From Candidatus Enterousia sp. (lineage in GTDB: Bacteria; Pseudomonadota; Alphaproteobacteria; Rs-D84), in assembly GCA_045593065.1 (NCBI GenBank), contig JAZNVZ010000003.1, positions 14,248 through 78,247 of the forward strand: a stretch of 64,000 nucleotides of DNA. The letters are read 5' to 3'. Position 1 is the first letter of the stretch, and each line of letters starts with the position of its first letter. Of the stretch, positions 19,419 to 53,527 are shown one piece after another. The position numbers were made by a program, and so were the translations under genes. The notes beneath the pieces were generated by a model. The model saw only the letters and a list, made by a program, of their open reading frames with translations, ran no database searches and was not told the origin of the DNA.

Positions 19419-19553
19419 AGCACCTATATTATTAGAACATTTTGATTTTTTTCGCAAGTTAGATTTTTTATTGTTTTTTTGGCGGTCTCACTTGAATTTT
19501 TTTATAAATGGACTATATCTGGGGGGACATCAAGAAAATACAAGGTCGTATTC

Positions 19554-33795: not shown

Positions 33796-33810
33796 TTTAT
33801 TCTGTGGAAT

Positions 33811-34539: not shown

Positions 34540-35029
34540 ATAATGTTACGATGTATTTTAAATATTCAATCGTCCAACGTTCCAATCGGCGGGGCGCAGG
34601 CATCCCAGTTAATGGCGCAGAACATGTGATGATTTCTGTGGTGGGAACCTCGTGATGAATTAAATGCACGGCGCGTTTCATATGTTCTTCGGTTGTAACG
34701 ACAACGATTCGGTCCAAATGTTGCTGTTCCGCAATTTTACGAATCGCTAACGCGTTTTGATATGTCGATTTAGATTTTGTTTCCATCATGACACGGGCGC
34801 GCCCAGGATTGAAATTATGACTGCCCACGCCAATAATGTGAATTTTGGCGTATGGATATCGTTTCGTTTGTTGTAATGCGTATGGAATTCTGCGTGCATC
34901 GCCAGTCAAGACAAATATATTATCGTTTGGCAAAATTGGCCCACACGATAACGGCGATGTTAATTTGAATATCATTCCGCCTAATACGAAAATACCCAGA
35001 ATTAAAAAAGATGGTGTTATTAATTTCAT
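34520..35029 (-). CDS. DUF218/YdcF(ElyC)-family protein
   Basis: N-terminal TM segment followed by a DUF218-like core (IVVVTTEEHMKRA). Confidence 0.55.
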   Translation of the reverse strand: MKLITPSFLILGIFVLGGMIFKLTSPLSCGPILPNDNIFVLTGDARRIPYALQQTKRYPYAKIHIIGVGSHNFNPGRARVMMETKSKSTYQNALAIRKIAEQQHLDRIVVVTTEEHMKRAVHLIHHEVPTTEIITCSAPLTGMPAPRRLERWTIEYLKYIVTLFGFKEG

Positions 35030-36641: not shown

Positions 36642-36767
36642 TTCAAAACTATATTAGAAAAAAATATGTGTTGGGTCAAATATTAAAATATTTTAAAAAA
36701 ATAGCTTTTACGATTTGTAAATATACTAAATTTATGATAAAATTAAGTGTAAAGAATTGGTGTAGGA

Positions 36768-37652
36768 ATGATTAATAATCGCATTGCGTATGCTGTTTTT
36801 TTATCGATTTTGCCTATGACGGCACTGGGCAGTATGGCATATGTGCCATCGCGCCCGTGTGATTGTGTGTTGGGTTGTGATTATACGGCGGATACTGCAC
36901 CAAATGGTTATGGCGCAAATGGTTGGAATTATTATCGTGGTGCCCCAGGATATCACGATTTTCAACGCGTTCAACCCGTAAATGAAGATACAGAACAAAC
37001 CCAAGACCAACCGTTGAATCAGGCAGAAAAAACTGATAATTCTTGGCAAGATGTGGGAATGTATGTGGCGGCGAATTTGGGTGCAAATATGTGGTCTTGG
37101 AAAAACACATATGAATCCAATTATGCGGGCGTGGATTTGAGTCAATCCCAAGATAAATATTCGTTTGAAAATGTTTGGGGCGCATCGTTGGCATTGGGAA
37201 TGGGGTTTGATGAAAATCTGCGTGGCGATATTGAATTAGGCATAACATCAAAATTCGAAGACAGTGATGATATTGCAGAATATACATTGCAATCACAATA
37301 TATCATGGCCAATGTGTACCGTGATTTTGAATCTGGGTTTTATTTGGGGGTTGGATTGGGTGCTGCCAAGGTAACAGCCGGATTGGGTGGTGCGTTATTT
37401 GATTCTAAAAAGCAAGAAGAATCAATTACATCTATCAAGGTCGGTTTGTCGGCGGGTTATGCCACCAAAATTGCAGACAATATGTTTGTCGATTTTCGAT
37501 ACAGATTGTCCGGATTAAAGAGCGCAGAAATTTCTAACAGTTCATTTTTATGGGATGATGTCGAAGGCGATTATGTTTCGTATTCTTTGCGCATCAAAAG
37601 TGATTTGTTAGTAGAAAATGCGTTGTCAGTTGGTCTAAGGTTTTATTTTTAA
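36768..37652 (+). CDS. outer-membrane beta-barrel protein (OmpA-like/porin-family barrel)
   Basis: Signal peptide, alternating amphipathic beta-strands, and a C-terminal aromatic residue (...VGLRFYF). Confidence 0.7.
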   Translation: MINNRIAYAVFLSILPMTALGSMAYVPSRPCDCVLGCDYTADTAPNGYGANGWNYYRGAPGYHDFQRVQPVNEDTEQTQDQPLNQAEKTDNSWQDVGMYVAANLGANMWSWKNTYESNYAGVDLSQSQDKYSFENVWGASLALGMGFDENLRGDIELGITSKFEDSDDIAEYTLQSQYIMANVYRDFESGFYLGVGLGAAKVTAGLGGALFDSKKQEESITSIKVGLSAGYATKIADNMFVDFRYRLSGLKSAEISNSSFLWDDVEGDYVSYSLRIKSDLLVENALSVGLRFYF

Positions 37653-37670
37653 ACATTTGGGGACAGAGAG

Positions 37671-39365
37671 ATGAAAAATAAATTTGGTATGTATTCGTTT
37701 ATTTTGACAAGTGCGATTTGTATGTTTGGCACATCAGCATTTGCTGCTGCCAGTGTGCGTGCATTGGGAACAGGAAACAATGCCGTGGTGGGAACATCTG
37801 GGGCTGCGGTTGTCAAATCTGCATCGCCAAATATTGTGGCGCGTCCAGGCGCATCAACCGCTGGGGCGGGGCAGGTGTCGCGCGCATCTTCGTTGCGTTT
37901 TTCGCCAACGGTATCATCTGGAACGATTAGTGGGGCAAAACAATATACGGTAAATACATCCGGCAAAAACCTTGGGGGCAGTGTTGCTGTATCGCCTTCA
38001 TCACGATTGTCTATTGGTAAATATTTGAATTTGTCGCATACGAATTCGGTTACCCCAACCAGTGGCGGAACAACCCCAACTGGTGGCACAGGGGGATGCA
38101 CCGCGTGCACAAATGATATAGACGCGTTGCAACAGGCATTGGATGAATTGCGCGCCAGAATAGATGCGTTTAATGACAGTAAACAAAATACTTTGATTGT
38201 TGGGGAACAATCTGGAGAATACATTACTATCGATGGCGACAGCCAAAATGTTATTAATATAGATATCGATTTGTTAAAGCAAGAATTGAACGAGGCATTG
38301 GGTAATGATAGGCCCGTGGTTACAGAATTAGATAATACATATAAATTATGGTGGTGCTATGCTGATGAATTAGAAACCGCTGTGGCGGGTGATAACATAG
38401 CGGACGCAACAAATATGGTGGCCGGTAAAAAGTGCCCAATTACCCACAGAAATTTGGTTATTGATTTAGGACATGTGTTGCAAAATTATGATTTGGTGAC
38501 AAATAATACATCTATTAATAATGCTATTGCACAGTTGCAGGCAGAATTAGAAAACAAACAGGTCGTGTTAACACCTCGTGGTGGCATAATTACGATTGGC
38601 CCAGATGCCGAAGACGAAACCAAGACCGCAATCAGTGTGGACGAAGATGCTTTGCGCGATGTGTTGGGGTTGGCTGAATTGCGGACGGCCGAGATGCGCG
38701 TTACTGACCAGGGCATGTTGCAGTGGCGTTATATGGACGAATTTGAATTAGATAACGAAACGCCAAAATGGACAGATGTTTATGATTTGACGAATTTGTT
38801 GACTAATTATGTGTCTATTCCTGCGTTCGAGGCAGAGCAAGCGCGCGTCAATATCGAATTGGGCAAAAGAGAGTATAAATTAACCCCAGATGTGCAGTAT
38901 AATTATGAAGGGAATTGGATGCCACTGGTGTATATCAATCGTGCCAACGAAGAACGCCCTGTAATTGGTTTGGAACTCAAAGCGTTGAGGGCGTGGGTTT
39001 TGGAACAAGTACACATGAATGGCAATGGTGAATACCGTGTTTTTGAAATGGTAAATGACGGTCCAATATTGAAATGGCATTACATAGGGGAAGATGATTG
39101 GAAAGAATTGAATTTGAATGATTATTTCGCATCACGAAATGATTTTAATACATTGCAGTCAGATTTTAATAGTTTGAGCAGCACCGTAACCAGTGTTAGC
39201 AGTACGGTTACCACAATGGAAAATGCGATAAACGAAATAAGCGAAAATTTGGCCAAAATTACGCCGCCTACGGATGGTGGATTGTATATTTTGAGTGTTG
39301 ACGAAACCGATGGCCCAGCGTGGCAACCGATTGAAATAGTTGATGCCGAATATGATGGCGAATAA
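37671..39365 (+). CDS. large secreted hypothetical protein (564 aa) with Gly/Ser/Thr-rich N-region and coiled-coil segments
   Basis: Signal peptide MKNKFGMYSFILTSAICMFGTSAFA. A VVGTSGAAVV motif is shared with the 12268 protein. Confidence 0.62.
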   Translation: MKNKFGMYSFILTSAICMFGTSAFAAASVRALGTGNNAVVGTSGAAVVKSASPNIVARPGASTAGAGQVSRASSLRFSPTVSSGTISGAKQYTVNTSGKNLGGSVAVSPSSRLSIGKYLNLSHTNSVTPTSGGTTPTGGTGGCTACTNDIDALQQALDELRARIDAFNDSKQNTLIVGEQSGEYITIDGDSQNVINIDIDLLKQELNEALGNDRPVVTELDNTYKLWWCYADELETAVAGDNIADATNMVAGKKCPITHRNLVIDLGHVLQNYDLVTNNTSINNAIAQLQAELENKQVVLTPRGGIITIGPDAEDETKTAISVDEDALRDVLGLAELRTAEMRVTDQGMLQWRYMDEFELDNETPKWTDVYDLTNLLTNYVSIPAFEAEQARVNIELGKREYKLTPDVQYNYEGNWMPLVYINRANEERPVIGLELKALRAWVLEQVHMNGNGEYRVFEMVNDGPILKWHYIGEDDWKELNLNDYFASRNDFNTLQSDFNSLSSTVTSVSSTVTTMENAINEISENLAKITPPTDGGLYILSVDETDGPAWQPIEIVDAEYDGE

Positions 39366-39380
39366 GTTTTTGCATGGTGG

Positions 39381-39412
39381 AAAAACGCCGGCGATTTGCC
39401 GGCGTTTTTTTT
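39381..39412 (+). terminator. intrinsic terminator
   Basis: Hairpin cgccggcgatttgccggcg followed by T8. Confidence 0.7.
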
Positions 39413-39759
39413 CAAAAAAAAATATCGCCGTTTCCGGCGGTATTTTTCGAATGCCCAGAAAGGAAGGAAAGGAGAAAAAGAAACGGGCATTCTAAACTGT
39501 AAAAAACTGGGCGGGGTCCAAGGTCCAGAGGAGAGAGAATGTAGGAGGGAGTCTGAATCCCTGGGCCCCTATCAAATGGATTAATCCCTTTGACGATTCG
39601 TAATGTAATACATTTTATTATGTTTGTCAAGTGTTTTTGTCAAAAAAATTTTTCGTATATTTTTTATGCCCGAAATCCTGGGAAATCGTCCTGGTTGATG
39701 GGGGAATGACTGTGGCGTAAAATTATGGTGTCAGTTTGTACCAAAAAAAGGGGGGCTTT

Positions 39760-39987
39760 ATGACACATGAAGAAGTTTGGCAGGCAATCGAAAAATTCGC
39801 GCAAGAGCACGGAATGTCTTGTTCTGGGCTGGCAAAATGTGGTGGATTGGACGCAACAACATTTAATAAAAGCAAACGTTGGTCTAAATGTGGTCAGCCG
39901 CGTTGGCCGTCCAGTAATAGTATCGCTAAAATACTAAGTGCGACTGATACCGATTTGCGCGATTTTACCAAGCATATGGAAAGATAA
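39760..39987 (+). CDS. short helix-turn-helix transcriptional regulator (alphaproteobacterial LexA/CI-N-domain-like family)
   Basis: MTHEEVWQAIEKFAQEHGMSCSGLAKCGGLDATTFNKSKR...RWPSSNSIAKIL matches a conserved alphaproteobacterial HTH protein I recall. The internal start MTHEE is preferred. Confidence 0.6.
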   Translation: MTHEEVWQAIEKFAQEHGMSCSGLAKCGGLDATTFNKSKRWSKCGQPRWPSSNSIAKILSATDTDLRDFTKHMER

Positions 39988-39998
39988 AGCGATTCGTT

Positions 39999-40928
39999 TT
40001 ATTTGCAAAATATGGAAAATATTTCCCAATGTGTACTGCCCACAAATTGGTCGACAGGAATGACATTGGTTAATTTATATCCACCGCGCACCAGTATGTT
40101 TTTATCGCGCGCCCATGTGTCGGGATTACAAGATATGTATATAATGCGTGCAACATTTGATGCGGATAATTCTGTGGCCTGGGCCATGGCACCTGCGCGT
40201 GGTGGGTCCATAATAACCGTATCGTATTGATTTAATTGTCTGGTTTTCAATGGGTTTTTGAATAAATCGCGTTTTATCCCAATGCCAGAGATATCAAATC
40301 CATCGGCGTTTGTGGCGAATGTAAAATTGCCAATTCCACAGAATAAATCAGCCACCCGTTTTGCGCCCGCGACATTTTCAATAACCAAATCGCGAATTGT
40401 GCGTTCAGTGGTTTCGGTGGGTTGCAAAAATGCCCCGTCTGGGAAATTGATTCGTTTTTCGTCAAATGCGATAACAGGTGTATTATACGCACGAACAATT
40501 TTTTCGTTCCATGTAAATCGAATAATCTGCGCAGGTAATTTTTGTACAGCATCGCGAAATTTTTGGGAAAAATATGGCACATTGCTGGTTGAGTTCACAA
40601 CAATCCCGTTTTCGCATTTTGTTATCAACACAGATGTCGCACATTCCCATGGCAACGCCGCCAGATTAGGCAGAATTTCATTAATTTCAGGCAATACATT
40701 TGGGCAATTTGTTATGTTTACAATGTCACGCGACATTGCTTTATAAAAACCGAATCGGTTTGGGGCCGCCACGAAATCTGCACGGCGGCGTGTGCCAGGC
40801 GCGCCCCAGATTGCGTTTGTGCCGTTTATACCGTGTGGCAGATTTTCCAATTTTTTTGTGTGATAATCAGGCGCAGTAAAATCATACGCACACCCGCCAC
40901 ACAACCCAAAAAACGGACATTTTGTCAT
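39999..40928 (-). CDS. 23S rRNA (uracil-5)-methyltransferase RlmD/RumA-family (lacks TRAM; N-terminal Cys cluster)
   Basis: CPFFGLCGGC Fe-S motif and the SAM-MTase motifs DLFCGIGNF and VIMDPPRAG. Confidence 0.78.
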   Translation of the reverse strand: MTKCPFFGLCGGCAYDFTAPDYHTKKLENLPHGINGTNAIWGAPGTRRRADFVAAPNRFGFYKAMSRDIVNITNCPNVLPEINEILPNLAALPWECATSVLITKCENGIVVNSTSNVPYFSQKFRDAVQKLPAQIIRFTWNEKIVRAYNTPVIAFDEKRINFPDGAFLQPTETTERTIRDLVIENVAGAKRVADLFCGIGNFTFATNADGFDISGIGIKRDLFKNPLKTRQLNQYDTVIMDPPRAGAMAQATELSASNVARIIYISCNPDTWARDKNILVRGGYKLTNVIPVDQFVGSTHWEIFSIFCK

Positions 40929-41012
40929 AAATTTGCCTTTTGTTTATGCTGTCAGTGTATCATAATTTATGTTGATTCCAAGTTGTTTTCTGCATATCAT
41001 ACATATGTTATG

Positions 41013-41828
41013 AAAAATACAGATAAAAAAATTGCTTTGTTCGCGGGCGCATTGTCGTTGCCGTTTTTGGCGCGTGATGTGTTGCGCCGCCGTGGTTGGG
41101 ATGTGTATGTCGTGGGGATCAAGAATTTTTATGACCCGGCATTAAAACCCGATTTGGTAATTCGATTAGGTGGGGCGGGGCGCGCTGCACGGGAATGTCG
41201 CAAACGCGGAATAAAAAAATTAACATTTGTGGGTGCATTGGGACATATTAATTTGGCGGATATTCGGCCTGATTTTTGGTCTTTGGGCGTATTGCTGAGT
41301 GTATTAAAACATCAACGGGGGTATGATTCTATGGCGGTTGCATTTAATAAAGCATTGGAAAAACGTGGATATGAAATTGTTGCGGCCCAACAGGTTGCAC
41401 CAGAATTAACATTTGAACGCGCGGGCGTACAAACCAAAACCAAACCAACCCGTGCAGATATGGCGAATATTGAACGTGCGATTGATGTGTCGCATACCAT
41501 TGGAACGGCGGATATTGGTGCGTCTGTGGTTGTTGATAAACAAGTTATCGCGGTCGAGGCCGCCGAAGGCACTGCGCGTATGTTGGAACGTGTTGTTGAA
41601 ATGCGCCAGAAAAAACACGGTCGGGCATCTGGGGTGTTTGCAAAAATGACAAAGCCAGGTCAAGATTTGCGTATTGATATTCCGGCGATTGGTGTTGATA
41701 CGGTTCGTGCGGTTGCGGCGGCGCATTTGCGTGGAATAATTGTTAATGCTAAAACATGTTTTGTGATTGACAAACCGGCGGTGATTGCGGCGGCTAATCG
41801 CGCAAAAATTTTTATTGTCGCAAAGTAA
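41013..41828 (+). CDS. lpxI: UDP-2,3-diacylglucosamine hydrolase LpxI (DUF1009)
   Basis: A protein of about 272 aa with an LpxI-like N-terminus (KKIALFAGALSLPF) and C-terminus. I used the internal start MKNTDKK. Confidence 0.65.
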   Translation, partial: KNTDKKIALFAGALSLPFLARDVLRRRGWDVYVVGIKNFYDPALKPDLVIRLGGAGRAARECRKRGIKKLTFVGALGHINLADIRPDFWSLGVLLSVLKHQRGYDSMAVAFNKALEKRGYEIVAAQQVAPELTFERAGVQTKTKPTRADMANIERAIDVSHTIGTADIGASVVVDKQVIAVEAAEGTARMLERVVEMRQKKHGRASGVFAKMTKPGQDLRIDIPAIGVDTVRAVAAAHLRGIIVNAKTCFVIDKPAVIAAANRAKIFIVAK

Positions 41829-41970
41829 TTTTTTTCAAAAAACTCTTTTTTTTTATGTCTAAAAAGTGTATAATATATGCAACATAAATAGGGGGGATTT
41901 TGTCGCATTATCAGGAATTTTTCCCCAAAAACAAACAAACGAACGAACGACATATAAAGGAAAGTGTGAT

Positions 41971-43353
41971 ATGAAAATCAAAAATTTTGCATTTTTTGGT
42001 GTTATGGCATCAATTTTGGGCGTCTGTGCCGCAAATGCAGATACGCCAACGGCGAAGCGAATCGCATCCACGCATTATGTGGACGAGACGGTTGCCCCAA
42101 AACAAGATAAATTAGACACCACCGCAGGTACAGGAAATGTTACATTTACTGGCGAAGGTAATGCAATCACAGGTGTTAGTGCATCTGGTGATGGTACGGT
42201 TCAATTTACCAAGGGTGCAACATTTTTGACCGCCACAGATATTACTGGTAAACAAGATAAAATTTCGAATGCGACAAATGGTAATATCACAACCACAGAT
42301 GCATCCGGTCAAACACAAGATTCTGGAAAAACATTTACAACAACAGTTGACAGCAATAGTACGAATGCTCAAATCCCAACAGCGGCTGCGGTTCAAAGTG
42401 CGATTACCACAGCCACGGCGGATGTTTCTGGCAAGGTCGATATTGCCCAGGGTGTTGGACATGAAGAGCATATTGTAGTTACTGATATTAATGGCAATGT
42501 TACGACTGCGCCATCAATTAAGTATACCCAAGTTGATGGATTGGTGGGCGCTTTCCAAGCATATAATGATTCAGCCGTTGATTCCGGAACATATGAAGTT
42601 ATTTCTGCTGGAAACTATGTTGGTAAGAATTTGATAAAGTTGGACGGAGAGAAACAAAATAAAATCGATTCCCGTGTGCCTGCGGTAGGACAAGGAGAGC
42701 CAAATTATCTGGCGATTACACCAAATAGTATCACGGTTGGTAAAAACCTGGCGTTGTTGGACCGCGCAATTCAAGAAAATCGTGGCAAACTTAACAGCAA
42801 ACAAGACGCATCAGATTCAAATGTGCCTGTGGCAGGACAAGGTCAACAGTATGCCGTAATTTCCGCTGGTAATAATGTTGGTACAAACTTGGTTGCATTG
42901 GATACGGCAATCACAAGCAATCTTGCCAAAATTCAAGAAAATCGTGACAAACTTGACAGCAAACAAAACGTAGCAGATTCAAATGTGCCTGTGGCGGGAC
43001 AAGGACAATCATATAACGCGATTACCAGTGGTAATTCTGTTGGTACAAACTTGGTCGCATTGGATACGGCGATTGGTACATTGTCTGGGACGGCGGGCGA
43101 TGCAGTGCAGGGTGTTAATGCAACCGTATCTGGCACTGGCGAGGCCATTACCGCCGTGGCAGAAAATGCAACAACACATAATTTAGATTTGACCAAATCT
43201 CAATTATCATACGCCGGTGCAATGAACAATGCGTTGCCAGAAATCAACGGTACGGCAAACTGGACAACAGCAAATTGTACTGATGATGACCCATGTGTGT
43301 TGACCATGAAATCAAATGGTGTGTTTGTGTGGACACATATGGTTACACAATAA
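41971..43353 (+). CDS. exported fibre-repeat protein 1 (phage-tail-fibre-like repeats; paralog family of three)
   Basis: Signal peptide MKIKNFAFFGVMASILGVCAANA and an N-terminal module AKRIASTHYVDETV. There are three 54-aa tandem repeats (NVPVAGQGQ.Y..I..GN.VGTNLVALDTAI). The C-terminal module is NCTDDDPCVLTMKSNGVFVWTHM. Confidence 0.8.
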   Translation: MKIKNFAFFGVMASILGVCAANADTPTAKRIASTHYVDETVAPKQDKLDTTAGTGNVTFTGEGNAITGVSASGDGTVQFTKGATFLTATDITGKQDKISNATNGNITTTDASGQTQDSGKTFTTTVDSNSTNAQIPTAAAVQSAITTATADVSGKVDIAQGVGHEEHIVVTDINGNVTTAPSIKYTQVDGLVGAFQAYNDSAVDSGTYEVISAGNYVGKNLIKLDGEKQNKIDSRVPAVGQGEPNYLAITPNSITVGKNLALLDRAIQENRGKLNSKQDASDSNVPVAGQGQQYAVISAGNNVGTNLVALDTAITSNLAKIQENRDKLDSKQNVADSNVPVAGQGQSYNAITSGNSVGTNLVALDTAIGTLSGTAGDAVQGVNATVSGTGEAITAVAENATTHNLDLTKSQLSYAGAMNNALPEINGTANWTTANCTDDDPCVLTMKSNGVFVWTHMVTQ

Positions 43354-43369
43354 AATAATCATAACATTT

Positions 43370-43402
43370 TAATCCCCATGATTTTCATGGGGATTTTTTA
43401 TT
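43370..43402 (+). terminator. intrinsic terminator after fibre gene 1
   Basis: Hairpin atccccatgattttcatggggat followed by T-runs. Confidence 0.65.
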
Positions 43403-43432
43403 TTGTTTTTAACATGTATTAATGTGTAAAAA

Positions 43433-43470
43433 AAATCCCTGTCTAATCGACAGGGATTTGATTTATATGC
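43433..43470 (-). terminator. intrinsic terminator after fibre gene 2 (convergent)
   Basis: Hairpin atccctgtctaatcgacagggat with an A7 run on its 5' side on the plus strand, which is the T-run on the minus strand. Confidence 0.6.
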
Positions 43471-43489
43471 AAATCACATGTGGTGATTA

Positions 43490-44653
43490 TTATTGCACAT
43501 TGCCCAGGTTCATGTTTGTCCATGTGTAATTTGTACCATCAAATGTCAATGTACATGGATTAGACCCAGTGCACGATGTGCCCGCAGCATATGCACCACC
43601 ATTAAAGTTTGCCAATTCATATGTCATACCGTCTTTGTATGTAATTCTGCCACGGCCAACACTGATTTGTCCGTTTGTTTGGTCAACTTCGACAACAGGT
43701 TGATTGGTTGCGGTATCTGCAACATTTGTAATTGTGTCTTGTTTGCCCGCAATATCCGCAGCAGTCAAAAATGTTGCGCCTTTTTCAATGGTTACAACAC
43801 CGTTCGCCGCAGTTACCGCGGTTACCGCGTTCCCAGAACCGTTTTGCTGCGATACAACAACATTAGTATTGTTTAATGTATCTTGTTTGCCAGAAATATC
43901 AGGAATTGCAGGCGTGTTTGTCAAATCTGCATAATCACCAGATGTCGCAACTGCGGCCAATGTTGGTTTGTTTGTCAAATCATTATAACTGCCAGATGTC
44001 GCAACCGTTGCCAATGTTGGTTTGTTCAAGATTTGTGCCGCCCCCGTTGTTGCGTTCCAGTCAGATTGAACATTTCCAGATGCCGCCGCGTTTTGAATTT
44101 CGTTCATAACCGTAGAACCATTAGGTACAGTGCCGATTGTGTTGTTAATACCGCTGATTGCACCGGCAACGGCCTGGCCAGATGGTGCGATTGTTGTATG
44201 TGTGGAATCAATCGTGTTTTCAACAAAATCCGCGTTTGTTGGAATTGTTGGTTTGTTTGTCAAATCATTATAACTGCCAGATGTGGCAACCGTTGCCAAT
44301 GTTGGTTTGTTCAAGATTTGTGCGGTACCGCCGGTTGCGTTCCAATCGGCATTAACCTGGGCAGGAACATCGGCAGATGTGATATATCCCGCATCATTTG
44401 CTAATTCGCTGACATTATCGCCTGGTTGCAATGCGGTCGCGCCTTCTGCCGCGCCACCCGCAACTTCATCAATCGCGGATTGGATTGTTGTCGCGGTTAA
44501 TCCGGATGTTTGGTTGTCGTAATCAGCCGCCGCAGCATTTTGTTTAACATAATTTACAGTTGCAACCTGGGTTACAGGGTTAGTGGCGTATGCATTCGCA
44601 GCGGCAAATATAGATGCCATTACGCCAAAAAATGCAAAGTTTTTAATATTCAT
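43490..44653 (-). CDS. exported fibre-repeat protein 2 (contains SGSYNDLTNKPT phage-fibre-type repeats)
   Basis: Start MNIKNFAFFGVMASIFAAANAYA with RBS aaggaa, then VATVNYVKQN. The unit NKPTLA(T/A)VATSG(S/D)Y(N/A)DLTN occurs three times. The C-terminal module is CTGSNPCTLTFDGTNYTWTNM. Confidence 0.8.
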   Translation of the reverse strand: MNIKNFAFFGVMASIFAAANAYATNPVTQVATVNYVKQNAAAADYDNQTSGLTATTIQSAIDEVAGGAAEGATALQPGDNVSELANDAGYITSADVPAQVNADWNATGGTAQILNKPTLATVATSGSYNDLTNKPTIPTNADFVENTIDSTHTTIAPSGQAVAGAISGINNTIGTVPNGSTVMNEIQNAAASGNVQSDWNATTGAAQILNKPTLATVATSGSYNDLTNKPTLAAVATSGDYADLTNTPAIPDISGKQDTLNNTNVVVSQQNGSGNAVTAVTAANGVVTIEKGATFLTAADIAGKQDTITNVADTATNQPVVEVDQTNGQISVGRGRITYKDGMTYELANFNGGAYAAGTSCTGSNPCTLTFDGTNYTWTNMNLGNVQ

Positions 44654-44846
44654 GTTTTGTTCCTTGGTTTTTTGGTTGTTTATTTGTTGGTGAGCAGAAT
44701 TTTTTATATTCTCCCCCCTGATAATTACTTTATATTTTATCATAAAATTGTATTAAAACAAAACTGTTTTTACAAATAATTAATATCAAATTATTGCCTT
44801 TTGATATTTGCGTGGTATAGTTGCAACAACAAAAAAGGTTGATGAT

Positions 44847-45182
44847 ATGAAAAAACAAACGCCGCGCGGGGAACGCATCGCATCCAAAGTCCAAACTATT
44901 GTTGCAGAAATTCTGCGCGATAAATTCAGTGATGATTCGTTGATTGCGGCTGTGTCCCTGGTTGGCGCAGATGCACATGGTGGTTTGTCTTTTGTGCGGT
45001 TGTATTATTACACAAATAATGACCCGGTTTTGACCCAAGAAAAATTGGATTCTATAACAAAAACTGTGCGTTATGAATTGGCGGGACGTTTGAATCAAAA
45101 ATACACACCTGAAATTAAATTTGCATACGATGACACAATCGACCGTGCAAATCGAATCGAAGAATTATTGAAAAATCTGTAA
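44847..45182 (+). CDS. rbfA: ribosome-binding factor A
   Basis: The sequence RGERIASKVQTIVAEILRDKF...VSLVGADAHGGLSFVRLYYY matches the RbfA KH-like fold. Confidence 0.78.
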   Translation: MKKQTPRGERIASKVQTIVAEILRDKFSDDSLIAAVSLVGADAHGGLSFVRLYYYTNNDPVLTQEKLDSITKTVRYELAGRLNQKYTPEIKFAYDDTIDRANRIEELLKNL

Positions 45183-45202
45183 TAAAGTGGGGGGCGCGGG
45201 GG

Positions 45203-45775
45203 ATGAAACTGGGCGAATATATGTTGAGCAAGGCCGAAACCAAAACATATTCTTGGTTCGTGTTTTTAATGACTGTGTGCGAATCGATTTTCTTGTTCGT
45301 CCCGCCCGAGGTTTTTATGACACCACCCATTGTGGCCAGCAAGAAACGCGCCGTCCCGACCGTTGTGGCGGCATCCATTGGTTCGATTGTTGGTGGTGCG
45401 ATTGCGTATATGATAGGACTCTGGCTGTTCGATTCGGTTGGCGTGTGGTTGATTGAAAATTTTGCATCCATGGAACGGTTTGAAATTGCAAAACAATTAT
45501 TTATAAAACACGGTGTGTTTATTATATTGCTGACGGCGGTAACCCCAATACCATACAAATTAATGGCGATTTGCGCGGGTTTTATGGGATTCCCGGCGTT
45601 GCTGTTTTTGGGGGTGTCGGCGATATTTAGAACAGGGCGATTCGCGATTGTTGGATATTTACTGTGGCGATTCCAGGAAAGTGCAAATAAAATTGTTAAA
45701 AAATATTTTTGGCCTTTGACGGCGGCGGCAATATTGATTGCAGGTGTCGGTATATTACTGATGTTTTTGTTATAG
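45203..45775 (+). CDS. DedA/YqaA-family membrane protein
   Basis: Four TM helices and the VTPIPYK motif typical of YqaA. Confidence 0.72.
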   Translation: MKLGEYMLSKAETKTYSWFVFLMTVCESIFLFVPPEVFMTPPIVASKKRAVPTVVAASIGSIVGGAIAYMIGLWLFDSVGVWLIENFASMERFEIAKQLFIKHGVFIILLTAVTPIPYKLMAICAGFMGFPALLFLGVSAIFRTGRFAIVGYLLWRFQESANKIVKKYFWPLTAAAILIAGVGILLMFLL

Positions 45776-45780
45776 TATGA

Positions 45781-46150
45781 ATTACGTCACCCCGCCGCAT
45801 AATCGTCATTCCGGCGCATGCCGGAATCCAGTTTGCGGAGCAAACTTGCTCACTTATTACACAAGTCCGCCTATGGCGGACTGGATACCGCGCGTCCGCG
45901 GTATGACGTCCGCGGTATGACGGGGCAGTTAGTTCTCATCCCGCTTTGTTTATTCCCACACCACAGAATCGTCACCCCGCCGCAGGGCGGGGTCCAGTTG
46001 GCGCAATGCGCCAACTTGTGTAATAATGCAAAAAAACACAAGTTTTGCGGAACGCAAAACTGGATACCGCGCGAAATTCACCCACGAAAATTTGCAATTT
46101 TCGCGGGGCCCGAAACCGCGGTATGACGATTCTGCGCCAAGAATGGAATA
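45781..46150. repeat. GC-rich array of at least 8 short stem-loops (palindromic extragenic repeat cluster, family B)
   Basis: The hairpins are attccggcgcatgccggaat, agtttgcggagcaaact, gtccgcctatggcggac, ataccgcgcgtccgcggtat (tandem), ccccgccgcagggcgggg, agttggcgcaatgcgccaact, agttttgcggaacgcaaaact and a second ataccgcg...cgcggtat. A 25-bp core ccgccgcagggcggggYccagttgg also occurs at 28675. Confidence 0.75.
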
Positions 46151-46316
46151 AAAAATGTAAAAAATTTCAAAAACCATTTTTTTTAACGAAAAATTATGAT
46201 ATAATGTTGTCAACTGTTGGGGGGGAATTTTGTCCTGATATTTTTCTAATAAGTATTGTGCAAACCCGTCCCAATCAACCAATAACAAACAAACGAAAGA
46301 AACAAAGGAACAAAAC

Positions 46317-47456
46317 ATGAAAGTAAGAAATTTCGCGTTTTTCGGCGTAATGGCCGCAATTTTGTCCGTTAGTGCCGCTAACGCAGATACAACAAAACGT
46401 ATCGCATCAACAAATTACGTTGATAACAAAGTTGATAATCAACATAATGGTCAGGTTATCACAGCAACCGACACTACTGGTGTGATAGGATATAAACAGA
46501 TTGATAGCGCAGTAACACAAGGTTCTTCCAACTTGGTTACATCTGGTGCTGTTCAAACAGCTATCGCTAATTCACAAAATGCTACAACATATACAGCGGG
46601 TGATGGTTTGGATTTAAATAATAATGAATTTACTGCAAATGTAGGTGATGGTCTTGCTATCAATGCTACAAGTAAAGCAATTGAATTAGATGCTGCAACA
46701 CAAGCATCGTTGGCTTTGGCTGATACAGCATTGCAACAACACCAAGATATTTCTGGCAAACAAGACAACTTGGGTGGTGGTGCTAATGATGGTAAGGTTG
46801 TTACAGCCACAGGTACGGCGGGTTCAGTTACTTATACTGGAATTGATACCACAGTAGGAGCAAATGCTAACAACTTGGTTACATCTGGTGCTGTTCAAAC
46901 AGCTATCTCTAATGCACAAAATGCTACAACATATACAGCAGGTGACGGTTTGAGTTTAGATGGTAATGAGTTTAATGCAGAGGTTGGTACAGGCCTTGCT
47001 ATTAATGGTAGTGGAGCAATTGAATTAGATTCTGCAACACAAGCATCGTTGGCTTTGGCAGATACAGCATTGCAACAACACCAAGATATCAGCGGTAAAC
47101 AAGACAAGATTGCTAACGCAACAGCTAATGATATCACAATAACAGATGCGAATGGTCAAACACAAGATTCAGGTAAAGCATTTACAACAACAGTTAGTGC
47201 AAGCAGTACAGATGCTCAAATCCCAACAGCACTTGCTGTCCAAACAGCTATCTCTGGTGCAGTTGATACCGCAATCGATGGTGTTACATATCCAACTGTT
47301 AATATTACTGGTAATAATGCTTTGGCTAATATTGATGGTACTGCTGCGGCGAACCAAGACACCCATTGTTCAGCAAATGAACCTTGTGTATTGACATACG
47401 AAGGCAACGGTGCTTACAAATGGTCATCTATTTGGGGTTTGCCAACAAACAACTAA
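46317..47456 (+). CDS. exported fibre-repeat protein 3 (paralog)
   Basis: Signal peptide MKVRNFAFFGVMAAILSVSAANA, then KRIASTNYVDNKV. An approximately 80-aa unit (NLVTSGAVQTAI.N.QNATTYTAGDGL.L..NEF.A.VG.GLAIN......IELD.ATQASLALADTALQQHQDISGKQD) occurs twice. The C-terminal module is CSANEPCVLTYEGNGAYKWSSIW. Confidence 0.8.
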   Translation: MKVRNFAFFGVMAAILSVSAANADTTKRIASTNYVDNKVDNQHNGQVITATDTTGVIGYKQIDSAVTQGSSNLVTSGAVQTAIANSQNATTYTAGDGLDLNNNEFTANVGDGLAINATSKAIELDAATQASLALADTALQQHQDISGKQDNLGGGANDGKVVTATGTAGSVTYTGIDTTVGANANNLVTSGAVQTAISNAQNATTYTAGDGLSLDGNEFNAEVGTGLAINGSGAIELDSATQASLALADTALQQHQDISGKQDKIANATANDITITDANGQTQDSGKAFTTTVSASSTDAQIPTALAVQTAISGAVDTAIDGVTYPTVNITGNNALANIDGTAAANQDTHCSANEPCVLTYEGNGAYKWSSIWGLPTNN

Positions 47457-47613
47457 TTGTTGACCGTTTCAGCATAGGTTTATGTTGAAATAAAAATCAC
47501 ATGTTTTGATTCCGTACCCCCGCGCAGATTTGCGTGGGGGTTTCTGGTTGCTCCGTTTTCGCTTGCAAATGGTGTTATACTGGTGTATCATTGCCGCAAA
47601 GGATGCGCGGGAA

Positions 47614-49407
47614 ATGGACCAAAAATATATTAGAAATTTTTCTATTGTTGCACATATTGATCATGGTAAATCAACCTTGTCTGATCGCCTTATCGAATTT
47701 ACTGGTGGTTTACAGTCCCGCGAAATGAAGGCCCAGGTTCTGGATTCTATGGATATCGAACGCGAACGCGGAATTACAATCAAGGCGCAAACCGTTCGTT
47801 TGAAATATCGCGCACATGACGGACATGAATATCAACTGAATTTAATGGACACACCGGGACATGTGGACTTTTCTTACGAGGTATCGCGGAGTTTAGCAGC
47901 GTGCGAGGGCGCAATTATCTTGGTCGATGCAACCCAGGGTGTCCAGGCGCAAACATTGGCAAATGCTTATTTGGCGTTGGATAATGATTTGGAAATGTTG
48001 CCGGTGTTAAATAAAATCGATTTGCCGTCCAGTGATGTTTCTGGTACGCGTGAACAAATCAGCGATGCGATTGGTTTGGATGCATCAAATGCGATTTGTG
48101 TGTCGGGTAAAACAGGCGCGGGTGTTCCAGAATTGTTGGAAGAAATCGTTACAAAATTGCCGGCACCACATGGTGATGCGGCGGCGGCAACACGCGCGTT
48201 GTTGGTGGATTCTTGGTATGATTCTTATTTGGGCGTGGTGGTGTTGGTGCGCGTGGTTGACGGAAGTTTGCGCCGTGGTCAAAAGATAAAGTTTGTTGCA
48301 ACTGGCGCAGAATACACTGTCGAAAAAATCGGTTATTTCACACCTAAAATGGTTGATGTTGACGTATTGTCCACGGGCGAGGTTGGATTTATCATTACAG
48401 GTATGAAAACAATTCACGATTGCAAGGTTGGTGATACTATCGTTGATGCTAAATTTGGTGGGGACGCGTTGCCCGGATTTAAACCGTCTGTGCCGGTGGT
48501 GTTTTCTTCGTTCTTTCCAATGGCGGCAGATGATTACCCCAGTTTGCGCGAAGGTGCAGAAAAATTGGCGTTAAACGATGCGTCTTTTACTTTTACGGTT
48601 GAAAAATCGTCTGCGTTGGGATTTGGATTGCGTTGTGGATTTTTAGGACTGTTGCACATGGAAATTATCAGCGAGCGTTTGGCGCGTGAATTTAATTTGT
48701 CGCTGATTAACACTGTCCCCAGTGTGTTATACAAATTGCACCTGCGCGATGGAACGGTTATGGATTTAGAAAATCCAGCCGATATGCCTGACCCAACGCG
48801 TGTCGATTTTATCGAAGAACCCTGGGTGTTGGCAACAATCATGATGCCGGATAAATATTTAGGCGGTATTATGGAATTGTGCGCATCACGCCGTGGTGTC
48901 CAAGATAATATTTCTTATGTTGGTAATCGTGCGGTGTTGACATATCGGTTGCCGTTGGCGGAAATCGTGTTCGATTTTTATGACCGTGTGAAATCGATAT
49001 CTTCGGGGTATGCTTCGTTCGATTATTCTGTGTGCGGGTATCAGCAATCTGATTTGGTCAAGGTGTCAATATTGGTTAATGACGAAAATGTCGAACCGTT
49101 GTCGTTTATGTGTCATCGGTCATCGGCGGAATCACGCGGTCGACAAATTGTGGAAAAATTAAAAGACCTGATTCCACGGCATCAATTCAAAATCCCACTC
49201 CAGGCCGCAATCGGTGGAAAAATTATCGCACGCGAAACTATCGCTGCATACCGCAAAGATGTTACCGCAAAATGTTATGGCGGCGATATCACGCGTAAAC
49301 GCAAATTGTTGGAAAAACAAAAAGAGGGTAAAAAACGTCTGCGGACATTTGGGAATGTCGAAATACCTCAGTCGGCATTTATCAACGCATTAAAGGTTGG
49401 TAAGTAA
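47614..49407 (+). CDS. lepA: elongation factor 4 (LepA)
   Basis: GTPase motifs AHIDHGKST and DTPGHVDF, plus the LepA-specific C-terminal domain. I used the internal start MDQKYIRNF. Confidence 0.9.
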
Positions 49408-49432
49408 ATTATAGGTAAAGGAGCGTGCTTTC

Positions 49433-49819
49433 ATGTCTATTACAAAAAAATTAAAAATTAAAAAATCACAATGGCGCGAATTTATTAGATGCGCAAAAAT
49501 AATGCGCGATGCAAGTGCAAATGTGGCACGCGCCGAAGATAAAATACACCTGAAAAAAACTTATAGTTATGATATCGAACAGGTCGGTTGGGACAATGGT
49601 TCTTGCTTGGTTACGCATGTGTATCCTGGCAAGGATGAATTCGGTGCTCAGGTGAATAAAAAATATCGTGATGTTTGTGAACATTTTGAATGTTGCAAAT
49701 GTTCATATTGTGTGCATCACCGTGATTGGCACAATTATAGGGACGCCAAGAAATCTTATGAATTGGCAAAAATTGCGTTCAGGATAGCCAGACAAAAATT
49801 TTTTGCAAAAGTAAAATAA
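49433..49819 (+). CDS. small Cys-rich hypothetical protein, paralog 1 of 3 (integrase-linked)
   Basis: RBS aaggag. The C-terminal cluster is CEHFECCKCSYCVHH followed by a basic helix YELAKIAFRIARQKFFAKVK. Confidence 0.6.
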   Translation: MSITKKLKIKKSQWREFIRCAKIMRDASANVARAEDKIHLKKTYSYDIEQVGWDNGSCLVTHVYPGKDEFGAQVNKKYRDVCEHFECCKCSYCVHHRDWHNYRDAKKSYELAKIAFRIARQKFFAKVK

Positions 49820-49840
49820 AAAAAACCAAAGGAGGCGCAC

Positions 49841-50236
49841 ATGTGTATAAAAAAAATTTGTCTTAATAATATAAAAAAATTGCGTATGCATCGCGCAGAC
49901 CAAGATGCGTATGATGAAAAATATAATGCGTACACAAAAACTTTGGATGCATTGAAAAAGGTAAAGACCCAGCACGAAGCCGCCCAGGCCGATATTACAA
50001 AAACTGTGTATCTGGATGCGGGTGATGCTGCGCCAAAGCAAGAAATTTGCCGTATGGTCGTGTACGAAGATATGCAACCTAAATATATTCAAACATGTTC
50101 GTATTTCAAAGATTGTGATAACGCCGATTGTCCGCATTACAAAAAGTTAGCGCGTTATATGCATGTGGATGAACAACTGGTCGTGGCAAAAATCGCATTC
50201 GAACGCGCCGAATCTGTGTGGAGTAAACAACGATAA
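49841..50236 (+). CDS. small Cys-rich hypothetical protein, paralog 2 of 3
   Basis: RBS aaggagg. Cluster CSYFKDCDNADCPHY followed by VVAKIAFERAESVWSKQR. Confidence 0.6.
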   Translation: MCIKKICLNNIKKLRMHRADQDAYDEKYNAYTKTLDALKKVKTQHEAAQADITKTVYLDAGDAAPKQEICRMVVYEDMQPKYIQTCSYFKDCDNADCPHYKKLARYMHVDEQLVVAKIAFERAESVWSKQR

Positions 50237-50247
50237 AAAAGGTCGTA

Positions 50248-50646
50248 ATGATGTCTGTGAAAAAAAGGTTTTTAGATTTTTTGAATCGTTATGATGATGT
50301 TCGTCAATGGAGTCGTGCATTGGCGAATGCTGGCATAGAACTGTGGGATGCACAACATAATATTACTGTCAATTATTTTTGGATTGGTGATATGTTGCCT
50401 GATGACAGTTTGTCTAATGGCAAACCTTGTTTCCGTGCCTATGTTCGTGATATTGATGATTACATGCACGCGGACAGGTCGCGTACGTTTGTTTGTGAAC
50501 AAATCCGTAATGGCGCAATATGCAAATGTACTGATTGCCAGTATTATCAAAACTATGCAAAATATTTGGCTGTATTGCGCAAGTATGATGCAATCCAGGC
50601 ACTGAGAGATGAAGCGGTAAAAAATTTGTACGCAAAGCAAAAATAA
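50248..50646 (+). CDS. small Cys-rich hypothetical protein, paralog 3 of 3
   Basis: Cluster CEQIRNGAICKCTDCQYY followed by a basic tail ...KNLYAKQK. The spacing to the neighbouring genes is tight. Confidence 0.55.
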   Translation: MMSVKKRFLDFLNRYDDVRQWSRALANAGIELWDAQHNITVNYFWIGDMLPDDSLSNGKPCFRAYVRDIDDYMHADRSRTFVCEQIRNGAICKCTDCQYYQNYAKYLAVLRKYDAIQALRDEAVKNLYAKQK

Positions 50647-50667
50647 AAAAGCAAAAGGAGAAAAATT

Positions 50668-51669
50668 ATGGCGCACCAGTTTTTCTTTAATCCGTATATC
50701 TTGGATGGGCTGCCAACGCCCGCAACAGGATTTGATGTCGTGCAAGATATTTCGGAACCACGGTTGCGTTTGTATATAACCAGTCGTGGCGCAAAAACTT
50801 TCTTTGTGCGTAAACGTGTGCATGGCAAAGACACCAGAATCATTATCGGTTCGTATCCAGAAATGGATATCGAAACTGCGCGCAGTATGGTGGCAACAGT
50901 GTTGAATGATGCGACCAAAAAAATTCCAATGCGCCGTAAACAAATCGGTTTTCGTGAATTTTGGGGGGAATATTTGAAAAACAAGGTGCGCCGCTGCGAA
51001 GATTCCCAGGTGAAATTGGTGCGCGCGGTTAATCAACATTTGCCAGAATTGTTCGATAAAAATCTGGACGAAATATCCCAGACCGATGTGAAATCTGTGA
51101 TTGAAAAAATCAAAGGGCCGGCAATCGCTGCGCGTATGCAAGAGGTTTTAACCAGTATATTCAAATATGGTATAGACCAAGGGTATATTAAAACAAATCC
51201 TGTGGCCGGATTGCCACGATTGGCGCATGTTCGCCGTAAAATCCCATTAAACGAAAACAATTTCCCAAATTTGATGGATGCTATTCGCGCAGTGGACAAC
51301 GAAACTATGCGAAACACTTTTTTGATGTTGATTTATTCGTTCTTGTCAAAAAGTAAAGTGTTGGCGATGCGCTGGGATGAATTAGATTTTAATCGTTATA
51401 CTTTACATGATTGGCCGTTGCCTGATGTCGCGGTGGTGTTGTTGGAACAGATGCCCCAAGATGGCGATTGGGTTTTTGTTGGTCGCTGCAAAAATCATTT
51501 GATGGACCCACGGGTTGCGTGGAATAATGTTGTGCATGCCGCAGGTATTCCAGGATTGCGTATGGATGATGTACATAAATTCTTGATGCGGCGACTGGTA
51601 TGGGCGGCTGACCGCGAAGATTTGCGCGCAAATATGAATTCTTTGTTAAACGAATTGTCTATATATTAA
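50668..51669 (+). mobile_element. int: tyrosine recombinase / phage (P4-type) integrase with an N-terminal arm-binding DUF4102-like domain
   Basis: RBS aaaaggag. N-terminus LPTPATGFDVVQDISEPRLRLYITSRGAKTFFVRKRV. A central SAM-like region and a C-terminal catalytic region (...HDWPL..., ...HKFLMRRLVWAA) are present. The catalytic Tyr cannot be placed with confidence. Confidence 0.72.
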
Positions 51670-51810
51670 AAAATATGTTTGTCAAGTTTTTGTTATAATT
51701 TGTTATAATCTCTTGACACCAGGTGCCGAAAATGATAAATTTGGTTAGTATGAGAAAATGCCCGTGGTTTTTTGTGGGGCGTGAAAGTTAACAAAAATAA
51801 AGGATTAAAA

Positions 51811-52044
51811 ATGTCAACTTTTGAACAAGTTAAAAAGATTATCGTTGAAAAATTGGGTGTTAAAGAGGCCGATATTACAGAAAACGCCACATTCGTGAAT
51901 GATTTGGGTGCAGATTCTTTGGATGTTGTCGAATTCGTGATGGAGGTTGAAAAAGAATTCAATATTACAATCCCAGACGAAGATGCTGTGAAATTGGAAA
52001 AAGTTGGTGATGCTGTTAAATATATCGATGCACACAGAAAATAA
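51811..52044 (+). CDS. acpP: acyl carrier protein
   Basis: 77 aa protein with the DLGADSLD phosphopantetheine-attachment motif. Confidence 0.92.
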
Positions 52045-52157
52045 TTTCCAATTAAAATAAAAAATTATCCGCCATGTGTGTGGCGGATTTTTTTCTGTAT
52101 ATTTTTTCTAAAATATATTATGATAGGCCTGTTATAAATAATAAAAAAGGATTATTG

Positions 52158-53408: not shown

Positions 53409-53450
53409 TATTTGTGTTTTGATTTTGTGCTGCTAATATATCGAACATAT

Positions 53451-53527
<77 letters not shown>

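Follow-up and report, generated by a model that had tools for sequence, protein, structure and literature searches.

A family of putative Sec-exported fibre proteins with fixed ends and strain-variable centres at a housekeeping locus of Candidatus Enterousia

Introduction

What would a bacterium with a very small genome do with three genes that share their ends, differ in their centres and lie among housekeeping genes? This question is raised by a 64 kb stretch of DNA from Candidatus Enterousia sp. (assembly GCA_045593065.1, contig JAZNVZ010000003.1, positions 14 248 to 78 247), here called the window, in which three such paralogues, labelled g1, g2 and g3, are found. An original prediction, made from the sequence, described them as a variable family of exported surface fibres or adhesins, probably built from domesticated phage tail-fibre modules. 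Our study found a protein family with a constant architecture and an invariant pair of cysteines, without any curated or structural relative, whose centres are mosaic and vary between strains and whose housekeeping locus is conserved across several species represented by metagenome-assembled genomes (MAGs). On balance, we read these proteins as surface fibres or adhesins of a new family, exported by Sec, probably trimeric and variable by cassette.

The host organisms give this question its context. Ca. Enterousia (GTDB order Rs-D84) are rod-shaped, non-flagellated bacteria with genomes of ~0.75–1.0 Mb in which the tricarboxylic acid cycle, respiration, standard transporters and parts of glycolysis are missing. 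It has been proposed that they depend on a partner, and hypothetical membrane proteins have been named as possible mediators of cell contact (PMC12306168).

Three paralogues at a conserved chromosomal locus

The three open reading frames (ORFs) of 379–460 amino acids (aa) that had been predicted are all present in the ORF list, at these coordinates and strands:

41971..43353, plus strand: coding sequence of g1, family member, 460 aa (ORF list and alignment); database protein P0001 is 100 % identical
43490..44653, minus strand: coding sequence of g2, family member, 387 aa (ORF list and alignment); database protein P0002
46317..47456, plus strand: coding sequence of g3, family member, 379 aa (ORF list and alignment)

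The start of g2 at 44653 is backed by the family alignment and by a Shine–Dalgarno site, the database copy of the g3 protein (P0025) is called from an internal methionine, and the family alignment gives no support to longer upstream extensions of any of the three ORFs. The neighbouring genes encode LpxI, a tRNA U5-methyltransferase, RbfA, a VTT/YqaA protein and LepA, and the family locus recurs in other genera, which bears out the view that this is a housekeeping setting and not a prophage.

A genome scan located relatives in MAGs of the uncultured proteobacterium RUG13870, RUG11963, Candidatus Enterousia onthequi and an uncultured Alphaproteobacteria bacterium. The region running from LpxI to RbfA–YqaA–LepA holds two family members in RUG13870, Ca. 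E. onthequi and the uncultured Alphaproteobacteria MAG; the RUG11963 locus ends at a contig end. As the same region is occupied in several MAG species, the locus is an old chromosomal home of the family. The named genomes with a member are, without exception, MAGs of uncultured gut or rumen (alpha)proteobacteria, Ca. Enterousia included.

Repetitive genes from a metagenomic source may be suspected of being an assembly artefact or collapsed duplicates, and to this explanation we attach a negligible probability. The shared ends of g1–g3 are only 78–83 % identical at the DNA level, with differences that are synonymous, the alleles were recovered again in independent ENA and Logan assemblies, and separate assemblies of several ENA and Logan samples yielded the same three-gene locus; the genes are therefore not collapsed duplicates. 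Within codons 5–13 of the signal peptide (NFAFFGVMA), all 7 of the sites that vary among g1–g3 are synonymous and 0 are non-synonymous, so that this conservation is selected at the protein level and does not reflect recent gene conversion or assembly collapse. The three genes are genuine paralogues.

A family defined by its ends

Alignment and a six-frame regular-expression scan of the window agreed with the original prediction that all three proteins have a near-identical signal peptide (MK/N-I/V-K/R-NFAFFGVMA), a short N-module (IAS/VATxxYV) and a C-terminal Cys-Pro-Cys module, or C-module (C-x5-PC-x-LT…Y-x-W). The patterns FAFFGVMA, [IV]A[ST]xx[YF]V and C-x-PC-x-L...[YF]xW were confined to g1–g3 across the 64 kb. 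The elements lie as follows:

41971..42039, plus strand: g1 signal peptide, aa 1–23, MKIKNFAFFGVMASILGVCAANA followed by DT (read from the sequence; conserved in the family)
44585..44653, minus strand: g2 signal peptide, aa 1–23, MNIKNFAFFGVMASIFAAANAYA followed by TN (ORF list and alignment)
46317..46385, plus strand: g3 signal peptide, aa 1–23, MKVRNFAFFGVMAAILSVSAANA followed by DT (ORF list and alignment)
42061..42084, plus strand: g1 N-module IASTHYVD, aa 31–38 (regular-expression scan and family comparison)
44543..44566, minus strand: g2 N-module VATVNYVK, aa 30–37 (regular-expression scan)
46401..46424, plus strand: g3 N-module IASTNYVD, aa 29–36 (regular-expression scan)
43201..43341, plus strand: g1 C-module, aa 411–457, with Y414, L422, C436-x4-P441-C442, L444 and W454
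43511..43645, minus strand: g2 C-module, aa 337–381, ITYKDGM...CTGSNPCTLTFDGTNYTWTNM
47289..47432, plus strand: g3 C-module, aa 325–372, Y...NNALANID...CSANEPCVLTYEGNGAYKWSSI

The g1 signal peptide reads as a positive n-region, a hydrophobic h-region and an A-x-A cleavage motif, and from such features Sec export with signal-peptide cleavage is very probable for the family. Identity as bacterial lipoproteins was considered and rejected, as the lipobox L-[AS]-[GA]-C is not matched and the cleavage site in g2, g3 and the wider family reads A-x-A and then D/T; a cysteine in the signal peptide occurs only in g1 and P0004 (LGVC, non-canonical).

A word-indexed search with the three-protein alignment as query returned only 15 unannotated relatives, in which the same leader, N-module and C-module surround unrelated centres. 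An exhaustive HMMER search of 1.84 billion cluster representatives with a 57-position C-module profile matched 91 proteins at E≤1e-3 and recovered the cluster representatives of g1, g2 and g3 (P0004, P0003 and P0025, at 7e-19, 9e-18 and 6e-14, respectively). Some 80 of the 91 are proteins of 350–700 aa with a single match at the extreme C-terminus. Two off-family matches, P0017 and P0023, are unrelated repeat proteins with many copies of W-T-G-x-C-x5-PC-x-LT(I/M); their match is a local motif resemblance only, and the Cys-x5-Pro-Cys hairpin may represent a small structural motif that recurs.

The C-module was found by regular expression in 81 retrieved sequences, and 70 of these carry the N-module IAS(Q/K)xYVD at about residue 26–31, right after the signal peptide; among the sequences without it are fragments from contig ends whose N-terminus is evidently cut off. 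Most relatives have the leader MKI[KR]N[LFI]AF[FC]GVMA, and some subgroups have another signal peptide (MKINNVAIAGIF..., MKRNHIAIAGIL...) with the N-module kept. In each of the 63 full-length members the mature protein has two cysteines and no more, both within the C-module, which points to a conserved disulfide and fits folding outside the cytoplasm. Each of g1, g2 and g3 has a C-terminal C-module with two mature cysteines and an N-module no more than ~10 residues from the signal peptide. The mature parts consist of 13–15 % Thr, 12–16 % Ala and 9–11 % Asn.

Pfam and NCBIfam gave nothing significant for g1–g3, Pfam gave nothing recurrent for the 63 members (ten families were matched once each, with weak E-values), and sequence, profile and fold searches of the PDB gave no match, so the expectation that the terminal modules correspond to no described family held in every collection searched. 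Judged by these searches, the family is real, small and uncurated, and its N- and C-terminal modules are new.

Predicted structure

The AlphaFold2 (AF2) monomer of full-length g1 is poorly folded, with a low pLDDT of 46.7, and has helices of 27–35 residues on its 54-aa repeats. This model would fit an obligate-oligomer fibre with coiled-coil segments, and we consider a trimeric fibre probable. The last 85 aa of g1, modelled from a 51-sequence alignment, were predicted with a pLDDT of 78.6 as two beta-hairpins, the second formed by PCVLT...YxWT; the first is missing in g3. That the C-module serves as a disulfide-stapled trimerization or anchor module is possible, although we hold this tentatively. 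As a hypothesis, its C-terminal hairpin may be likened to the T4 fibritin foldon. The foldon and similar phage-fibre nuclei are short C-terminal beta-hairpins with a conserved Trp that end fibrous proteins, and a foldon-type C-module would register three chains after export. Compared with the foldon, however, the C-module is longer and has the Cys-x5-Pro-Cys pair, and no sequence, profile or fold match connects the two.

These ends also bear on whether the proteins are divergent trimeric autotransporter adhesins (TAAs; type Vc secretion), with the C-module as a minimal membrane anchor. TAAs such as YadA, Hia and BadA are adhesins of host-associated Proteobacteria, and they share with the window family a conserved signal peptide, a variable, repetitive passenger or stalk and a conserved C-terminus. 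The repeats resemble a segmented coiled coil, several members end in ...Y-x-W or ...FAY, and AF2 gives four short C-terminal strands in g1. However, there was no match to YadA_anchor, YadA_stalk or YadA_head in the three genes (E≤1) or in the 63 members (E≤0.01), and the universally conserved part is only ~45 aa, which, with the first hairpin missing in g3, is too short for four transmembrane strands and a pore helix. The C-module is also more polar than a four-strand barrel segment, has polar strands and an invariant Cys pair predicted to be disulfide-bonded, and in most members is followed by a polar tail of 5–25 aa after the Trp. A TAA identity was rejected on the lack of any anchor, head, stalk or HIM match in the 63 members, with only generic helical segments predicted, and we leave the type Vc explanation only a slim chance.

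Mosaic centres and their phage-like component

The centres had been described as entirely different, which proved incorrect. Positions 42237–42404 of g1 resemble 47084–47251 of g3 at 79 % nucleotide (nt) identity, and 42211–42271 of g1 match 43723–43783 of g2; the centres are mosaics of shared, shuffled modules. Each also contains tandem repeats, as had been predicted. The central features are:

42237..42404, plus strand: module of ~56 aa in g1, DITGKQDKI...GQTQDSGKTFTTTV...AQIPTAAAVQSAI, common to g3 and missing in the sister allele P0004
47084..47251, plus strand: g3 copy of the ~56-aa module, common to g1 and present in three copies in the sister allele P0059
42768..43070, plus strand: g1 tandem repeats of 162 nt (54 aa), x1.9, SDSNVPVAGQGQ.Y..I..GN.VGTNLVALDTAI..., modelled by AF2 as long helices; further, more degenerate copies lie upstream
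43850..44368, minus strand: phage-tail-fibre-like region of g2, aa 96–268, including NKPTLATVATSGSYNDLTNKPT units (PHROGs and tblastn); these form a 54-nt tandem array, x2.1, at 43915–44026, with a third copy at 44241–44311
46500..47107, plus strand: duplicated unit of ~114 aa (~342 nt) in g3, with copies at 46500–46768 and 46842–47107 of 82–91 % nt identity

Phage similarity is concentrated in g2. Its PHROGs matches were phrog_17509 (6e-15, function unknown) and phrog_9729 (tail fiber, 3.4e-6), compared with one marginal match for g3 and none for g1. By tblastn against 50 697 phage records, aa 96–268 of g2 are 40–53 % identical to phage proteins, with E-values down to 2e-23; the matches include the tail fiber protein of Ralstonia phage phiRSL1, the tail protein of crAss-like phage cr50_1 and the baseplate wedge/tail pin of Synechococcus phage S-H38. 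Such phage proteins, with SGSYNDL-xNKPT repeats and a composition similar to the family's, are trimeric fibres. The corresponding PHROGs (9729, 892 and 28766) match few relatives, each tail-fibre PHROG being found in at most 4 of the 63 (E down to 9e-17). Phage_fiber_2 (PF03406), which the original prediction had named for the g2 unit, was absent from g1–g3 at E≤1 and from the 63 members at E≤0.01. The C-module had no phage match in the same phage records even at E≤5, and the leader with the N-module had none in IMG/VR. The suggestion of domesticated phage tail-fibre modules thus stands for the g2 centre and a minority of relatives, and g1 and g3 give it no such support. Because phage similarity occurs in few centres and in neither end, phage-type modules are one ingredient of the pool and not the origin of the family frame.

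The same evidence speaks to whether these are true tail-fibre genes of a phage, gene transfer agent or tailocin, belonging to a particle assembled in the cytoplasm. The g2 matches and an integrase-like gene 3 kb downstream of the fibre genes could be cited for this, yet we rate it as highly improbable. All members have a signal peptide, g1 and g3 lack phage matches, the ends are absent from the phage collections, and there are no further phage genes nearby, the neighbours being LpxI, RbfA, YqaA and LepA in an arrangement kept in several MAG species; the integrase-like gene, for its part, is conserved as a neighbour of lepA in the chromosome. Phage tail-fibre proteins, unlike those of the window, are encoded in phage genomes and have no signal peptide, N-module or C-module. 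Tail-fibre identity was rejected on the housekeeping neighbours, the universal signal peptide and the conservation of the locus across MAG species.

Variation between strains

A sister strain in ENA (L008) has the same gene order as the window, with DNA identities of 98.8 % over 33713–42251 and 97.3 % over 47097–53467. The lengths of ten out of ten housekeeping neighbours are identical between the two, whereas all three fibre genes differ. For g1, the 460-aa window allele compares with 347 aa in the sister strain (P0004), the centre being 73 % identical with module insertions and deletions; the window allele is longer by a repeat of ~54 aa and by a 61-aa module, the latter being the module that g3 also has. 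For g2, the difference between 387 aa and 369 aa (P0003) is a single 18-aa NKPT repeat unit. For g3 (379 aa against 414 aa in P0059), the ends are conserved and the central cassette at 46420–47097 is replaced, so that three coiled-coil-plus-module units stand in place of the window's ~225-aa centre. This is cassette-style diversification between fixed ends. Taken with the shared ends and the Thr/Ala/Asn-rich mature parts, it agrees with the earlier description of a paralogous, variable, exported family with fibre-like composition.

Cellular location and export

Whether the fibres are exposed at the cell surface and act in adhesion or recognition is, in our estimation, evenly balanced. Several points weigh against our reading of them as surface fibres. 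Pfam found no recognizable anchor domain in the mature parts of g1–g3 or the 63 members; neither an outer-membrane anchor nor a dedicated partner for secretion was found, with no barrel, lipobox or partner gene adjoining; g1 and g3 had no phage match among the 50 697 phage records; and a protein away from the surface could likewise vary between strains if its repeats were prone to slippage.

Some of these points favour envelope-internal structural proteins, that is, periplasmic fibres or fibres on the inner leaflet of the outer membrane acting as tethers or spacers, in which variability is repeat slippage. A Sec signal peptide and a conserved disulfide prove only delivery to the periplasm, neither an autotransporter barrel nor a dedicated secretion gene adjoins, and some of the variation is plain repeat copy number. 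We nevertheless think this explanation improbable. In strains whose flanks are 97–99 % identical, the central cassette of g3 is wholly replaced and a 61-aa module is inserted in g1, changes that exceed slippage and are of the kind usually seen where exposed proteins undergo diversifying selection. A binding role is suggested by homology to phage receptor-binding fibres, and the retention of two to three fast-changing copies in a genome of <1 Mb argues for a function in interaction.

Alternatively, the cell could release the proteins as fibres that are soluble or only loosely bound, for example as secreted lectin-like factors, phage decoys or matrix components, in which case they would not be anchored adhesins. 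The missing anchor domain is compatible with this, and a secretin system encoded in the window could export folded periplasmic proteins. A TcpQ-domain protein (PF10671, 1.5e-17; 8574–9485, plus strand) lies directly before a Secretin protein (PF00263, 1.6e-12; 9518–11146, plus strand) that has a lipoprotein-type signal (...GALFVGC); DprA is encoded at 13204–14241. The TCP system of Vibrio cholerae secretes the Sec-exported TcpF, which we count in favour of release by way of the window pair. Set against this, the strictly conserved C-module and N-terminal cap look like attachment or assembly elements, and released fibres seem to us quite improbable. The crossing of the outer membrane is also the weakest link in our preferred reading, that of surface fibres or adhesins; as a speculation, the TcpQ/secretin pair at 8574–11146 is the sole candidate for it in the window. 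From its domains, this TcpQ/TcpC-like pair in a reduced genome is a possible outer-membrane route for folded periplasmic proteins.

Expression signals

Promoters, leaders and terminator-like hairpins accompany each gene:

41866..41970, plus strand: g1 promoter and 5' leader, with TATAAT at 41869–41874, G6 at 41891–41896 and a CAAAC/GAAC-rich leader
44654..44745, minus strand: g2 promoter and leader, with TGaTAAAAT at 44742–44734, G6 at 44718–44713, a CA-rich leader and the Shine–Dalgarno site AAGGAAC
46197..46316, plus strand: g3 promoter and leader, with TGaTATAAT at 46197–46205, G7 at 46219–46225, a CAAAC-rich leader and the Shine–Dalgarno site AAGGAAC
43371..43395, plus strand: g1 terminator-like hairpin followed by a T-run
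43433..43459, minus strand: g2 terminator-like hairpin followed by a T-run
47516..47541, plus strand: g3 terminator-like hairpin of 11 bp with 8 GC pairs, upstream of the true lepA start

The original prediction had described a shared 5' untranslated region and a terminator for each gene, and both descriptions were sustained: a TATAAT-type -10 box, a G6–7 run, a CAAAC-rich leader and AAGGAAC...ATG occur in all three, and a terminator-like hairpin lies 3' of each. Relatives in four other MAGs have the same upstream elements, namely the TATAAT-type -10 box (TGnTAxAAT in most), a G-rich run ~15 nt 3' of the box that is able to pair with a C-run, and an unstructured (CAAA)n-rich leader followed by AAGGAAC or AAGGGAA shortly 5' of the ATG. 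In the g1 leader, the G6 run can pair with CCCC at 41923–41926, and the Shine–Dalgarno site AAGGAAAG lies at 41957–41964. The hairpin was predicted for g1 (z = -0.2), g2 (z = -2.55) and RUG13870, with modest z-scores of -0.2 to -2.6, which suggests a 5' hairpin at the predicted transcript start. From these upstream elements, the shared promoter and leader would form a strong-expression cassette.

Upstream of g3, the window has G7 (46219–46225) where the sister strain has G6, and the leader of Ca. E. onthequi has ~14 copies of (CAAA)n (L006, ~7930–7985), compared with 2–5 in the window genes. We make no claim of phase variation through these runs, as the length differences sit in untranslated leaders and might reflect noise in the assemblies.

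Comparison with known systems

The nearest analogue in function to the window fibres is the MAT (mosaic adhesive trimer) superfamily of Bdellovibrio bacteriovorus: Sec-signal-bearing, phage-tail-fibre-like, chimeric, multi-copy chromosomal fibres of a contact-dependent diderm, whose paralogues exchange modules (Caulton et al. 2024, PMC10769870). As with the window fibres, the mode of attachment of MAT proteins to the cell has yet to be settled (PMC10769870). MAT proteins, of ~1,000 aa in the members described, have a conserved, beta-rich N-domain of ~130 aa and C-terminal tips that vary and may or may not carry a Peptidase_S74 chaperone (PMC10769870), whereas the window family has a conserved N-terminal element of ~10 residues, a variable middle and a conserved C-terminus in 350–700 aa. 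Its fibre-type repeats start ~10–20 residues past the predicted cleavage site, and only the N-module of 8–10 residues is conserved there. Neither an S74 domain nor sequence homology to MAT proteins was found by Pfam in g1–g3 and the 63 members. A further mark of the superfamily is an intertwined trimeric fibre of beta-prism or beta-helix form, beside which stands the full-length g1 monomer model of pLDDT 46.7. MAT membership was rejected, as both the ~130-aa N-domain and the variable C-tip are missing and the C-terminus is the most conserved part.

A second comparison is with the Vlp/Vsa proteins of Mycoplasma and the Msp2/P44 proteins of Anaplasma, which are multi-copy proteins of host-dependent bacteria with reduced genomes and have a conserved 5' untranslated region, signal peptide and flanks around recombining or repeat-variable centres. 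The likeness lies in the copy number, the conserved 5' untranslated region and flanks, and the variable centre. However, those proteins are lipoproteins or beta-barrel porins and not fibres, and they have defined switches (invertible promoters, pseudogene cassettes), a mechanism of which type was not found at the window fibre genes. We file the window genes as chromosomal, exported, mosaic fibre adhesins, a known kind, with new terminal modules.

Proposed mechanism

In the scheme that we propose for surface fibres of this kind, each gene would be transcribed from its own conserved TATAAT-type promoter, through the G-run/C-run 5' hairpin and an unstructured CAAAC-rich leader, and Sec would export the product by means of a signal peptide that would then be cleaved and whose hydrophobic core appears to be under purifying selection. 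The mature chain would begin at the short IAS(Q/K)xYVD cap and continue into a Thr/Ala/Asn/Gly-rich mosaic of putative x-P/A-S/T-x-x-A-V helix caps, ISGKQD units and segmented coiled-coil repeats (VG.NL.ALD...), joined in some members by phage tail-fibre repeats (SGSYNDLTNKPT). It would end in the ~45-aa C-module, in which the invariant cysteines (C-x5-PC) most likely form a periplasmic disulfide and the two C-terminal beta-hairpins are most likely the folding and trimerization nucleus, or the cell-proximal attachment point, of a trimeric fibre. The conserved ends would provide a constant frame, and the central cassettes within it would undergo duplication and deletion, pass from one paralogue to another and be replaced from strain to strain; the outcome would be strain-specific surface fibres or adhesins contacting a partner cell or host.

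A more far-reaching version of this scheme, which we regard as rather doubtful, is that the family represents an unrecognized class of Sec-exported, barrel-less trimeric fibres carried by reduced-genome, partner-dependent gut Alphaproteobacteria, in which the new, disulfide-stapled C-module both nucleates the trimer and attaches it, and cassettes swapped among paralogues, strains and phages set the partner cell or host surface available for docking.

Other features of the window

Directly 3' of lepA lie three tandem paralogous ORFs of ~130 aa that are Cys/His-rich and without a Pfam match (49433–49819, 49841–50236 and 50248–50646, all plus strand); three are also present in L008, and RUG13870 has a single ORF of ~110 aa. 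The integrase-like protein is of 333 aa (50668–51669, plus strand) and matches Arm-DNA-bind_3 and Phage_int_M only, with no catalytic-domain match at E≤1e-3. Its position after lepA and before acpP/fabF is conserved in L004 and L008, so that it may be a recombinase that has been domesticated or has degenerated, and not the integrase of a mobile element. Between yqaA and g3, positions 45785–46130 hold two adjacent copies of a GC-rich element of ~160–185 bp with the ends CGTCACCCCGCCGCA ... CCGCGGTATGACG. The sister strain has one copy, and there is none elsewhere in the window and no Rfam match; the element could be of the miniature inverted-repeat transposable element or repetitive extragenic palindrome (MITE/REP-like) type, or a small RNA gene.

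An OMP_b-brl protein (36768–37652, plus strand) is followed by a 564-aa secreted protein (37671–39365, plus strand) with LQWRY.DEFE...KW repeats and no Pfam match. This protein is 844–903 aa long with more repeats in L007 and L004, and to judge from its sequence it looks like a second length-variable exported protein conserved beside the fibre locus. The window also contains dnaA (14662–15927), gyrB (17442–19457) and dnaN (27254–28372), and cumulative GC skew rises almost monotonically; the window is therefore probably near the replication origin.

Conclusion

Rs-D84 bacteria, Ca. Enterousia among them, are widespread in animal guts and uncultured, and the route by which they would contact a partner is the gap to which the fibre genes speak. 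With two to three exported, probably strongly expressed copies in a genome of <1 Mb, and with centres that change between near-identical strains, the fibres would be the likeliest contact molecules, and as such they would also face phage and host immunity. The N-module and C-module together provide a searchable marker of the family, the fibres are candidate antigens or probes with which to visualize or enrich Rs-D84 cells, and the new, small C-module may serve as a compact trimerization tag. If the proteins were instead periplasmic structural proteins, the gain would be a modest one in annotation only. If the docking-fibre reading is true, the family would be a bacterial counterpart of the swapping of phage receptor-binding proteins, and would offer a handle on how uncultured organisms find their partners.

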